From Escherichia coli O157:H7 (GTDB lineage Bacteria; Pseudomonadota; Gammaproteobacteria; Enterobacterales; Enterobacteriaceae): a stretch of DNA of 64,000 nt. The stretch lies in the NCBI RefSeq assembly GCF_013167455.1, contig NZ_CP038328.1; one strand, given 5' to 3'. The stretch's first letter is position 1; the number at the start of each line of letters is the position of its first letter. Shown one piece after another: positions 52,601-55,600 of the stretch. The position numbers were made by a program.

Positions 52601-55600
52601 CCCCCATAACACTGTTTTTGGTTTTAACTGTTCCGCGTGCGCTCAGCCGCATTCACCGCATCACAAAATTCACTTTAAAAAGGGCGGCAGAGCAGTCACG
52701 GAGTAAAACTGATACCGCCAAACGTCACCAGAAAATTGATAACAGAGGGCGTTGCAGCGGGGTTGTCACTTAAGCGTATGGTCAACCTGACAACCCGGTG
52801 TCCTCAACGGGGGAAGGAATAACCCCTCCATACTTACCGCCGCGCCATTTCGCGGATTGCCACAACCGGAAGCGCACGGTCGACGAAAATTTAACGACAG
52901 GCTATCTATGAACCAGCTACCTCGCCGTGCGCTTTCGCGTTATGGTCTGACTTTTCAGGGAAATATCCTTTCAGTAAACTGTCAGTGCCGTATGCTCACC
53001 CGTGTCCGGCGCACGCACTCCACCTCACCCGTGGAGAACTCCTTAATTACCAACCTTAGCTTCGTTGGTTAGCTATTAACGCGGGTATGTAATCATTCTG
53101 GCAATGCTTAATGCCGCTGCTTTTTCCAGATTGGTGATATCCTGCTCCAGAGCGGACAGATTTTCAGCCTGCTTAGCCCTGGCTTCATTGGCCCATTTCA
53201 GATCCTGCGCTGCATTAATTTTCTGGTGCATCCACTCATAAAGTTCATCATCGGTATAGTCTGGCGCGATGATGACGGGTTCTCGTTTCTGCATGTCGGC
53301 TCCTTGTGGTTAGCGTTGCCTGCTTTTAACCACGTCAGGCGAGGTGGTATCCTCTGAGGGGTCTGTTACTCGAGAGGAAATTGGTTATGAATACAATCAA
53401 GTTTTCTTGCCCAGAATGTGGTGGCGAAGTCTTTGACACATCCTTTAAGCCGCAGGGCTCTGACAGTTTCGCGGGAGCCATCTGCAAAAATTGTGGTCAC
53501 CTTGTAACTGAAGATGAGTCCTCGCAGTTCGATGACGAAATCGTTGACAATATCTTCGGTGCACTCACCAGAGACTTTCTGAAGTAAAGGCGCATACCGC
53601 TTAGTTACCGCTCTGATAACTCTTACCTGTCCTGCAATGGCGCTGATGTCAATATAAAGCGCCATTGCTGCTTCTTTGCCGATCCCGGGATGCCTTCCAT
53701 TCTGATGTTTGACTTCGCCCACTGAGAAACCCTCTGTTTCCCCTTAACGCCGGGGTAGCGGAACAAAAAACTGCTGCATAGTTATTAAAGTTGAACCCTG
53801 CCGTCATGTTCATACGCCTCGGGCTGGCTACTTAACCCCTGACCACTGCCGGGTAACTCGAAGTATTTCCCTGCGTTCTGTGGGGCGGGGTGGGTTGGTA
53901 TTTTTAGTTTAATAAACATTAAACTTAAGTCAAGTAAAAACTAAACCGCGGGACATAACAAACACAACGCTTTTGATAAAGTCGTTGCGGTTGTTATGTT
54001 TCTATTGGTAGTGAAAGTTAGGGAAACTGGCGTCTTGCGTGGATCACGTTTACTACTTCAACGCTTGATGTTGTTACGCGGTATAGAATTATATAGTTAG
54101 GGTGGGCTACAATCTCACGCAAGCCAGGTACTCTGTCGCTTGGTGGGTATAAATACGGATGTTCGGATAACGGCAGCACACAACCCCTTAATCGCTGCCA
54201 TAAGCGTTCAGCCGCATCTATGTCGAAACGAGCAATATAACTAGTTATATCATCTAGGTCGGTATCTGCGCTTTCAAGCCATAACACGGGTAACATTTTA
54301 CTGCTTGCTCCGTTCCTTGCGCATCTTAGCAAAGCGTTCTGCCATTCTGCGCTCAACTTCGTCATGGGGAATTGCTGGGCGCGGATCTGCAAGGCTCGTT
54401 GCTACTTTCGCACGCAGCCATTCGTTGTAACTGTTTTCTTGTTCAATGGTTTCAAATTCAGAAACCATTGGTGAAAGGGCTCTATTCATGTTTCCTCCGG
54501 TTTTATAACTCAGGCGCGGCGGCATTTTTGCGCCGCAATCCATCTCGCTATGAGATCTTCCATTGATTCTTTTTTCTGCTTTAACTCGCTGATTATCTGG
54601 CGTTGCTCATCCTCAGGGAAGGCTGAAAAAATCTGCAATAATTCCAGTTGATTAGACGTTAACCCTGCATGTGGTGGAGAACCCCCCGGTTGTTCTGCGT
54701 ATTCCGCATCCAGATACCCTTCCGGCATCCCGTATGTTTGCTCTATTCTTCTGGCAGCCTTTTCTCCAAACGAGGCTCTCCCACTCATTAGTTGAGATAG
54801 GTAGCTCTTCTCTTTGGGTGGCAGAGTTTTATCTTTAAACCACTCCTTGAGACGTAAACGGCGAATTTCTTTTTTTTGCATGTGGTAATTATCTTTAGTA
54901 ATCACTAAACAAGCAAATACTTGACTTAATGGTTTATTAAACACTAAACTCGCAAAAAAACACTAAACCGAGGAAGGTATGACATTAAAAGAGTTTATTA
55001 AATCATTAAGGGTTGGTGATGCTAAGAAATTCGCGGCCAGACTTGGTGTATCGCCATCTTACTTATCGCAAATGGCGTCTGGACGAACAGCTATATCTCC
55101 AACCCGCGCCCTTATGATCGAATCTGCGACGGAAGGCCAAGTAAGTAGGGCGGAGCTACGACCCCATGATTGGGAGCTTATTTGGCCTGAGTATGCGAGC
55201 GGCATTCGTTTGGGGCAAACACATGTAGTTCATGCTGAAGGTGATTGTAGTGCATGCTTATCTGATGGAGTTGATTCATGAAAATCAAGCATGAACACAT
55301 CCGCATGGCGATGAATGTCTGGGCGCATCCGGACGGCGAAAAAGTACCGGCTGCGAAAATTACCAAAGCGTATTTCGAGCTGGGAATGACGTTCCCGGAA
55401 CTGTATGACGACAGCCATCCGGAAGCCCTGGCCCGTAATACCCAGAAAATTTTCCGTTGGCTGGATAAAGACACCCCTGATGCTGTTGAAAAAATGCAGG
55501 CTCTGTTACCGGCGATCGAAAAGGCGATGCCGCCTTTGCTGGTGGCCCGTATGCGCAGCCACAGTTCTGAATATTACCGTGAGATCGTCGAACGGAGGGA

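Follow-up and report, generated by a model that had tools for sequence, protein, structure and literature searches.

The stretch of DNA analyzed here, hereafter the window, comprises 64,000 nucleotides of an Escherichia coli O157:H7 genome (contig NZ_CP038328.1), and its region around positions 53366-53722 is the immunity and early-left region of the cryptic prophage CP-933P/Sp12. Roughly 400 bp of this prophage are occupied by two open reading frames (ORFs) on opposite strands, namely a zinc-ribbon gene on the plus strand (53387-53587) and a longer ORF on the minus strand (53366-53722) that encloses it and reads in the direction of the early-left operon. The 501 bp that were queried are 100% identical to O157:H7 strains. 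We interpret the two ORFs as a conserved antisense gene pair in codon register with convergent promoters, in which both genes are real as described below, and we assign this reading a probability of roughly 0.6. The zinc-ribbon gene is already catalogued, hence not a new discovery, and by itself it is ordinary; the new point is that the strand opposite to it is probably a conserved gene as well.

The plus-strand gene runs from an ATG at 53387 to a stop codon at 53585-53587 and encodes a protein of 66 amino acids (aa), MNTIKFSCPECGG…CKNCGH…, in which two cysteine pairs, CPEC and CKNC (C8-x2-C11 and C33-x2-C36), are invariant in all homologs and the acidic C-terminal half forms a predicted helical tail. 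A Shine-Dalgarno (SD) sequence read from the DNA, GAGAGGAA (53372-53379, plus strand), ends 7 nt ahead of the ATG, and 9 of 11 aligned lineages keep its AGGA core at an equal distance, the exceptions being L099 (AGAAAA) and L085 (TGGATA). The CxxC…CxxC ORF with acidic tail and SD is therefore present as an earlier note, made from the sequence alone, had described it. A 68-aa version starting at TTG, which was listed by the ORF tool, is unsupported because all homologs begin at the ATG. The protein (ECs_2282 family) is a full-length member of NF047912, a family of about 60-66 aa with two CxxC pairs, scoring 57.3 bits against the curated hidden Markov model cutoff of 37 (E = 1e-15), with residues 4-59 aligned to profile positions 1-56 of 60. 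It also matches the uncharacterized phrog_4852, and the Prokaryotic Genome Annotation Pipeline (PGAP) places the gene at exactly these coordinates in O157:H7 genomes (RefSeq WP_001092153.1).

Searches of Pfam, NCBIfam, PHROGs and PDB sequences with the plus protein returned, besides NF047912 and phrog_4852, only sub-threshold generic zinc-ribbon matches (DUF5795, TFIIB, Lar, HVO_2753 and TFIIE). Membership of the Lar restriction alleviation family was rejected (TIGR03655, 15.7 bits against a cutoff of 39.6, E = 0.014), the Lar-like PHROG match (E = 0.0098) being a generic zinc-ribbon resemblance only. A TFIIB/TFIIE-type ribbon was likewise rejected (PF08271, 21.8 against a gathering threshold of 29; PDB 1vd4, E = 0.16). 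None of the analyses lent support to the functions proposed in the earlier note, a regulator or an anti-defense protein. The product is described here as a putative C4 zinc-binding protein, and no paper on ECs2282 or WP_001092153 was found in the searchable library.

Prophages of Citrobacter, Klebsiella, Enterobacter and Serratia carry homologs that share 45-70% identity with the plus protein, and comparison of these homologs indicates strong constraint on the plus frame. Within the overlap, the ratio of nonsynonymous to synonymous rates (omega, Nei-Gojobori) is 0.08-0.29 for the plus frame vs 0.43-1.8 for the minus frame, and single-base codon changes placed on a minimum spanning tree include 85 that are silent in plus and nonsynonymous in minus and 34 of the reverse kind. 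The four cysteines survive TGC/TGT changes that switch the minus protein between Ala and Thr. These observations are further strengthened by tree-based simulations under minus-only selection, which gave a plus identity of 0.519±0.026 vs the 0.651 observed (reached in 0 of 1000 runs) and left the plus frame open in all lineages in 3 of 1000 runs, so that selection on the minus strand alone is rejected for the plus frame. The view implicit in phage GenBank records and Prodigal-type callers, that the CxxC ORF is a chance antisense shadow, draws on the minus ORF being longer, operon-oriented and the one annotated in phage records, and on nonsense alleles of the plus ORF in some E. coli copies whose minus ORF is intact. 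It is already contradicted by the selection analysis, and the conservation of the SD, start codon and promoter unit, the better long-range conservation of the plus protein and its matches to NF047912 and phrog_4852 likewise speak against it, leaving it highly improbable.

The nonsense alleles deserve separate attention. The recurrent change E14* (GAA>TAA, codon 14, 53426) is found in about 16 of 87 sampled E. coli copies (~18%), all in one clade, at loci that include L004, L066, L067, L072, L074, L076, L078 and L080, and it alters the minus protein from Phe to Leu; E44* occurs in one sampled copy. In genomes that carry GAA>TAA, PGAP annotates the minus ORF instead (WP_001240336.1, 99 aa). This allele provides a ready-made natural knockout of the zinc-ribbon ORF. 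The earlier note had proposed a Ka/Ks comparison of both frames, and the outcome was not purifying selection on the minus frame alone with the plus ORF disrupted in relatives, since it is the plus frame that is constrained in the overlap, though E14* breaks it in the minority of copies just described. The zinc-ribbon ORF opposed to the early-left operon, which the note had put forward, is under purifying selection, and we hold it to be a real gene with very high confidence.

The minus-strand ORF is the first cistron of the operon read from the early-left promoter PL933P and belongs to PHROG 21318 (match to phrog_21318, E = 4e-67). It encodes 118 aa from a GTG at 53722 (SD GAGGG) or 99 aa from an ATG at 53665, with its stop codon at 53366-53368. 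The earlier note had called this 118-aa ORF featureless; the ORF itself is present, but the description does not hold, as the frame is conserved, PL-proximal and bears a coding signature outside the overlap. It is open in 39 of 39 unique sequences, including those with a broken plus ORF, as well as in all remote relatives, and it is intact in every full-length relative examined. Divergent homologs place an SD and ATG right at the conserved N-terminus of the minus protein, for example GGAGG…ATGATTACG and AGGAG…ATGATG. In phage GenBank records (phages Evi and vB_EcoS-813R8, and PPompW prophages) the ORF appears as a hypothetical protein. Its direction matches that of the operon around it in every context seen, whether it is the first gene after a cI-like repressor or PL (the window, C. 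freundii, K. michiganensis, Serratia and metagenomic contigs), directly follows cro in a rightward operon (K. variicola and C. amalonaticus), or comes behind ant in a region resembling immI (Klebsiella phage ST899-OXA48phi17.1).

The pairing of the two ORFs extends to remote relatives. An exhaustive HMMER search with the minus profile yielded 7 cluster representatives, and all those examined carry an antisense CxxC ORF, which stays in register even in the most divergent minus-protein matches, P0039 and P0040. By tblastn with the plus protein, ORFs with 25-33% identity were found inside HK639_45, which follows pL-putL as the first gene in phage HK639, inside QBP28601.1 from Klebsiella phage ST974-OXA48phi18.2, and inside QBP28573.1 from ST899-OXA48phi17.1; in all three the CxxC ORF is antisense, in register and preceded by an SD, and the annotation lists the minus ORF alone. 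The remote plus ORFs align with a hhalign probability of 97% (E = 1e-11). Two Bacteroidota matches, the sole return of the GTDB genome scan, were spurious, as was the tblastn match MT836198. Among the homologs examined, no relative was found with one ORF but not the other. The pair is old: its range covers no fewer than three phage subfamilies and five genera and reaches from Escherichia to Serratia and to the remote phages (HK639 and the Klebsiella phages).

Further evidence for the minus gene comes from region A, the 26 minus codons (MALYIDISAIAGQVRVIRAVTKRYAP, 53588-53665) that lie beyond the plus ORF. Here omega for the minus frame is 0.15-0.5, and substitutions fall on the three minus codon positions as 73/58/114 (chi-square p = 3e-5), a periodicity that persists when the part forming a hairpin, described below, is set aside (40/39/74, p = 4e-4). 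Synonymous and nonsynonymous changes number 68/62 in the minus frame vs 22-34/92-104 in four of the five other frames; the remaining frame, a plus-strand shadow, reaches 61/68, yet it has stops in 37 of 42 sequences, and the minus frame is the only one free of stops. Since region A evolves as coding sequence in the minus frame, the signature of selection flips from minus to plus at the plus stop codon. The flip repeats independently between HK639 and ST974phi18.2, where omega for the minus frame is 0.22 outside the overlap, and inside it omega is 0.21 for plus and 0.91 for minus. A minus ORF that is kept open, looks translated, is constrained at its N-terminus and lies in an expressed operon is firmly supported, and we consider it likely, with good confidence, that it is translated and at least partly functional.

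The minus ORF (357 nt) completely encloses the plus ORF (201 nt) in exact codon register, with plus codon position 1 opposite minus position 3, so that the last ~70 minus codons are the codon-for-codon antisense of the zinc-ribbon gene. Both frames stay open and keep this register in 11 divergent ECs_2282-type lineages, in the homologs L106-L108 and in the HK639 and Klebsiella-phage subfamilies. In the plus frame of ten divergent sequences, TCA, TTA and CTA, each of which would place a stop in the minus frame, are absent from 103 Ser and Leu codons except at the natural minus stop. When only the plus frame was placed under selection, the minus frame stayed open in all 11 lineages in 1 of 1000 simulated runs, or in 7-9 of 1000 with the codon bias of the window. 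Under random synonymous codon choice, the chance of minus openness is 0.11-0.44 per lineage; the product of these chances is 1.5e-5 for eight deep lineages taken as independent, and 0.02 if just the three subfamilies are counted. Taken with the plus-frame results above, the simulations reject selection on either strand alone.

Simulation was used to judge the minus frame inside the overlap, since the plus frame confounds its simple Nei-Gojobori omega there. The observed minus identity of 0.561 compares with a simulated 0.53-0.54 under plus-only selection (P = 0.11-0.21), while a better-matched nucleotide divergence gave a simulated 0.505 (P = 0.005), and in several pairwise simulations the minus identity was higher than expected (P = 0/300). 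These comparisons give only weak evidence of amino-acid selection on the minus protein within the overlap. They bear directly on the view taken by RefSeq, that the plus gene is the only gene, the minus ORF being an untranslated or meaningless shadow and region A being retained as the 3' untranslated region and terminator of the plus gene. In line with this view, the substitution pattern of the overlap is dominated by the plus frame, the minus identity there is only marginally above its expectation, shadow ORFs are common in this register (with an example at locus L003, below), and the hairpin takes up 32 of the 78 nt of region A. Against it stand the periodicity and minus-frame synonymous excess that remain in non-hairpin region A and recur in the HK639 subfamily, the conserved SD and ATG at the minus N-terminus, a minus frame that no more than 9 of 1000 simulations leave open across all 11 lineages and that is open in three remote subfamilies as well, the co-orientation of the minus ORF with the operon in three distinct contexts, and an AlphaFold model of the minus protein with a predicted local distance difference test (pLDDT) score of 80. 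We consider it unlikely that the plus gene stands alone.

A different explanation accepts translation of the minus ORF but assigns it mainly to the prevention of Rho-dependent polarity on ydfC-dicF-dicB, with at most the N-terminal part of the protein mattering and the overlapped sequence irrelevant. It would account for an open frame that is strongly selected while the overlap sequence is only weakly so, and for a minus ORF that is always co-directional with the operon. It would also accommodate locus L003 (2554-3171, a prophage of E. coli AR_0067), where the same slot holds an unrelated rightward ORF of 106 codons whose in-register antisense frame is open as a 205-codon fusion with the ydfB pseudogene; the chance of this is ~0.03 by a rough hand estimate from Ser/Leu content, and the case may reflect either chance or pressure on antisense inserts to keep the operon-strand frame open. 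The purifying selection on amino acids in region A is not expected from polarity, nor are the pairwise simulations with P = 0/300 or the AlphaFold model, which packs overlapped and non-overlapped residues into one confident fold. An ORF kept mainly against polarity is improbable in our view.

The structural model in question was obtained with AlphaFold2 from 13 sequences and gives the minus protein a beta-alpha-alpha-beta-beta-alpha fold that includes the overlapped residues (pLDDT 79.7, predicted template modeling score 0.66). Fold and sequence comparisons with PDB and BFVD turned up no relative of the minus protein. A role as an N-like antiterminator was rejected because the protein has no arginine-rich motif.

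Upstream of the zinc-ribbon gene lies a promoter-like unit on the plus strand (53326-53353), composed of a -35 element TTAACC (53326-53331), a 16-nt spacer ending in TGg (TG at 53345-53346) and a -10 element TATCCT (53348-53353), with a predicted transcription start near 53360. The pattern TT(A/C)ACC-N16-TGnTAT(C/T)(C/T)T is kept in 9 of 11 divergent lineages and in L108, and in L106 only approximately. Of the 113 loci fetched, 95 contain its 27-nt core, as a single copy everywhere but in L085, which has two, and the core stands ~36 nt ahead of the plus ATG where this was checked. In related prophages other rightward ORFs follow the unit, namely an unannotated hydrophobic ORF of 106 aa in L003 (E. 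coli AR_0067) and a 31-aa ORF in L085. As the unit heads different rightward ORFs, it appears to serve as a portable expression signal for genes that run against the early-left operon, and we infer that it is active ahead of the zinc-ribbon gene.

The whole unit extends over ~65 nt and consists of the conserved block GCCTG(C/T)CTTTT(A/C)ACCAC(G/A)TCAGGC..GGTGGTAT, a lineage-specific inverted repeat and then the SD; copies lie at 53320-53378 in the window, at 2500-2571 in L003, and at 1574-1645 and 2195-2264 in L085. Conservation extends to the 16-nt spacer, as would seldom be seen in a simple sigma-70 promoter, and this may point to an RNA element or to a regulator that binds there. In the window, the inverted repeat consists of CCTCTGAG (53351-53358) and CTCGAGAGG (53369-53377) and overlaps the -10 element, the predicted start and the SD, and the stop codon of the minus ORF (53366-53368) sits in its loop. 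The sequence of this repeat differs in other lineages and the inverted repeat stays, as CTTGG…CCAAG or, in L003, as CCTTAAAA…TTTTAAGG. It folds with -9.9 kcal/mol in the minus sense (z = -3.3) and -11.4 kcal/mol in the plus sense (z = -0.8), and is a candidate operator or RNA hairpin.

A second inverted repeat, at 53634-53668, lies 47-81 nt past the plus stop, within minus codons 19-30, and contains the minus ATG at 53665. The earlier note had reported it as perfect with 10-bp arms and without a T-run; it is indeed perfect, with fully (100%) complementary arms of 11 nt, not 10 (53634-53644, GCAATGGCGCT; 53658-53668, AGCGCCATTGC), around a 13-nt loop, and no clean T tract follows it in the window, where the tail reads TGCTTCTTTGCC. 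As five other perfect inverted repeats of at least 11 nt with short spacers occur in the 64-kb window, its presence alone is not exceptional. The repeat does form a stable fold (-21 kcal/mol, z = -3.4), and it is kept in relatives. The 6-bp core (GGCGCU/AGCG(C/U)C) is paired in 14 of 14 sequences, and one core pair is G·U in 8 of the 14, which in the minus-sense RNA is a C·A mismatch. The outer pairs show compensatory changes that also alter residues of the minus protein, for example in L100, and covariation along the hairpin is 0.219 vs 0.147±0.021 in shuffles (0/500). In L097, L008 and L100 the hairpin is 4-6 kcal/mol stabler in the zinc-ribbon sense, and in relatives a run of T8 (L097) or T7 (HK639) directly follows the stem.

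Because the hairpin folds better in the zinc-ribbon-sense RNA, we regard it as probably the 3' hairpin of the zinc-ribbon mRNA, whether terminator or stabilizer. With intrinsic terminators it shares a GC-rich stem of 11 bp at -21 kcal/mol, while its 13-nt loop is long; in the window the stem is present, the tail is merely U-rich (UGCUUCUUUGCC) and the scanner made no call, so that it falls short of the definition. The earlier note had suggested a protein-binding site, and together with this a hairpin that masks the start codon of the minus mRNA was weighed. In favor of either are the perfect palindrome-like repeat in the window, the position of the minus ATG within it (in L100 the ATG also lies in the stem) and the missing clean U tract; the drift of the arms with compensatory changes fits RNA pairing better than a fixed protein site, and the G·U pair that turns into C·A in the minus sense, the better plus-sense folding, and the U8 and U7 tracts in L097 and HK639 argue in the same direction. 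A DNA site or a masking hairpin is possible but doubtful, and the repeat has more of the character of an RNA hairpin in the plus transcript. A nut/boxB site was rejected because of the 13-nt loop, the position inside an ORF, and the C·A mismatch in the minus sense in most homologs, even though the stem GCGCU/AGCGC resembles the boxB of P22.

The genes around the pair place it downstream of a known switch. The paaR2-paaA2-parE2 genes (54018-54944, minus strand; Pfam PaaA2 and ParE) lie upstream of the minus ORF, and a promoter scan located PL933P at 53906-53933 on the minus strand (TTGACT-16-TAAACT), reading into the minus ORF, and a PR promoter-like site at 54921-54950 on the plus strand. The hexamers of the latter, TTGACT and TAAACT, are identical to those of PL, in agreement with the published description of PL933P and PR933P. 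PL933P was named and shown to be active in that work, with ~100-fold repression by PaaR2 and YdaS (Jurenas et al. 2021, PMC8630535). Leftward beyond the minus ORF follow ydfC (53076-53294), the small RNA DicF (52682-52733, minus strand; Rfam 76.7 bits), dicB, ydfD and a recE-like exonuclease gene. No Rfam family matches within 53300-53720, DicF being the sole match.

Several side observations were made in this neighborhood. A sub-threshold STnc100-like match adjoins DicF (52475-52684, minus strand; 39.7 vs 47 bits), and a 54-aa "hypothetical protein" that RefSeq lists on the plus strand between DicF and ydfC (L001 3609-3773) looks doubtful. The recE-like gene is an intact ORF of 823 codons in the window (49567-52038) and is split by IS1203 in strain TR01 (L001 390-1603), so that the window derives from another O157:H7-type genome, or from another copy of the prophage, than the best match to the 501 bp queried. 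The leader between PL933P and the minus ORF holds an unannotated 64-bp stretch (53737-53800). Of the 5,426 E. coli genomes searched, ~2,400 further ones match only this stretch or a 37-bp stretch upstream of ydfC, and in most of these the 64-bp stretch has an identity of 97% or more. Its carriers also include prophages in which ydfA/DUF1391 replaces the zinc-ribbon cassette. The stretch could be a PL leader or a nut-like element.

Reading the locus as a gene pair with convergent promoters suggests a regulatory scheme. The plus strand would carry an autonomous small gene, in which 66 codons are preceded by an extended -10 promoter-like unit and an SD and followed by a 3' hairpin, and the minus strand the first PL933P early-left cistron, of 99-118 aa with a predicted alpha/beta fold. 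PL and the plus promoter would converge, and the two RNAs would be complementary over >250 nt; with promoters and RNAs so arranged, each gene would be expected to dampen the expression of the other by transcriptional interference and by the formation of duplex RNA. In the lysogen, where PL is repressed, the zinc-ribbon protein would be produced, its transcript being stopped by the hairpin short of PL; the minus protein, and then ydfC-dicF-dicB, would follow after PL derepression. Such antagonism may help to hold leaky PL transcription back from dicF-dicB. The independent antisense transcription envisaged in the earlier note is in keeping with the conserved promoter-like unit and 3' hairpin, from which the transcript would be antisense to that of PL933P, while the modest score of the promoter, given next, tempers the claim. 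A further extension, in which the pair acts as a toggle between lysogeny and lytic growth, the zinc-ribbon RNA and possibly the protein silencing or neutralizing the complementary early protein, and in which the register is maintained by this mutual action, appears quite unlikely.

Several points weigh against two real genes with convergent promoters. The plus promoter matches the sigma-70 consensus at 8 of 12 positions, besides the extended -10 TG, which is below the scanner's threshold of 9/12 and was not called. The regulatory logic of mutual antagonism is something we only infer, and we treat it as tentative, at well below even odds. The plus ORF, broken in ~18% of E. coli copies, is evidently dispensable in cryptic prophages, and the AlphaFold model of its product is poor (pLDDT 56), too poor for a fold search. 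On the other strand, the minus protein is far less conserved at long range (hhalign 24-89% vs 97% for plus), its identity in the overlap is only modestly above the plus-only simulations, and its confident model is no proof of synthesis. Moreover, in-register antisense shadow ORFs arise easily, as the per-lineage openness shows, and the unrelated rightward ORF of L003 has an open one too.

These findings would reconcile a split in annotation, in which RefSeq lists the plus gene only and phage records the minus gene only, since each of the two calls is probably correct. Bacteria and phages offer few well-supported antisense overlapping genes, and the subject is contested. The present pair is well suited to clean genetics, since a single base change can destroy one frame and be silent in the other. 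Its position just downstream of a bistable switch that has been characterized by experiment (PaaR2/YdaS, PL933P), and upstream of the toxic dicF-dicB, therefore makes it a tractable system for the study of convergent dual-coding units across the lysogeny/lytic decision.

Compared with existing catalogs, the pair has been recorded one strand at a time. The NF047912 entry provides a name without a function and covers one strand, leaving the nesting inside a conserved antisense ORF unannotated. PHROG 21318 and, remotely, PHROG 29546 hold hypothetical early proteins of temperate enterobacterial phages (HK639_45 and QBP28573.1), likewise with only the minus strand listed. Lambdoid prophages are known to carry "morons" and lysogen-expressed genes that run against the early-left operon, such as sieB of the Rac prophage, and a classical moron sits between genes. 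The zinc-ribbon gene resembles these in being small, in having a promoter-like unit and a hairpin, in lying against PL in the early-left region, and in sharing its unit with different cargo ORFs in related prophages; it differs in lying inside a conserved operon ORF. It is conceivable, as a general rule, that rightward morons set within early operons must maintain an open frame on the operon strand, which would spare the operon Rho polarity. Should either this rule or the toggle be true, the locus would represent deeply conserved natural bidirectional coding, codon for codon, as in the Rodin-Ohno hypothesis.

Most proposed antisense overlapping genes are young and rest mainly on expression data. 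The closest published parallels are the embedded antisense genes of O157:H7 (ano in ECs2385 and three in EDL933; PMC5960689, PMC9927249, bioRxiv 10.1101/2020.11.18.388249), which are likewise fully embedded and each possess their own promoter and SD. These papers on enterohemorrhagic E. coli do not mention the zinc-ribbon locus, and three of the published cases are in frames -2 or -3, whereas the pair described here is in-register. In contrast to the published O157:H7 cases, this pair is conserved across genera and phage types, its embedded gene is the better conserved of the two, and the evidence for it is evolutionary. Among antisense overlapping genes it is unusual in being at once ancient, in-register, and better conserved in the embedded gene.

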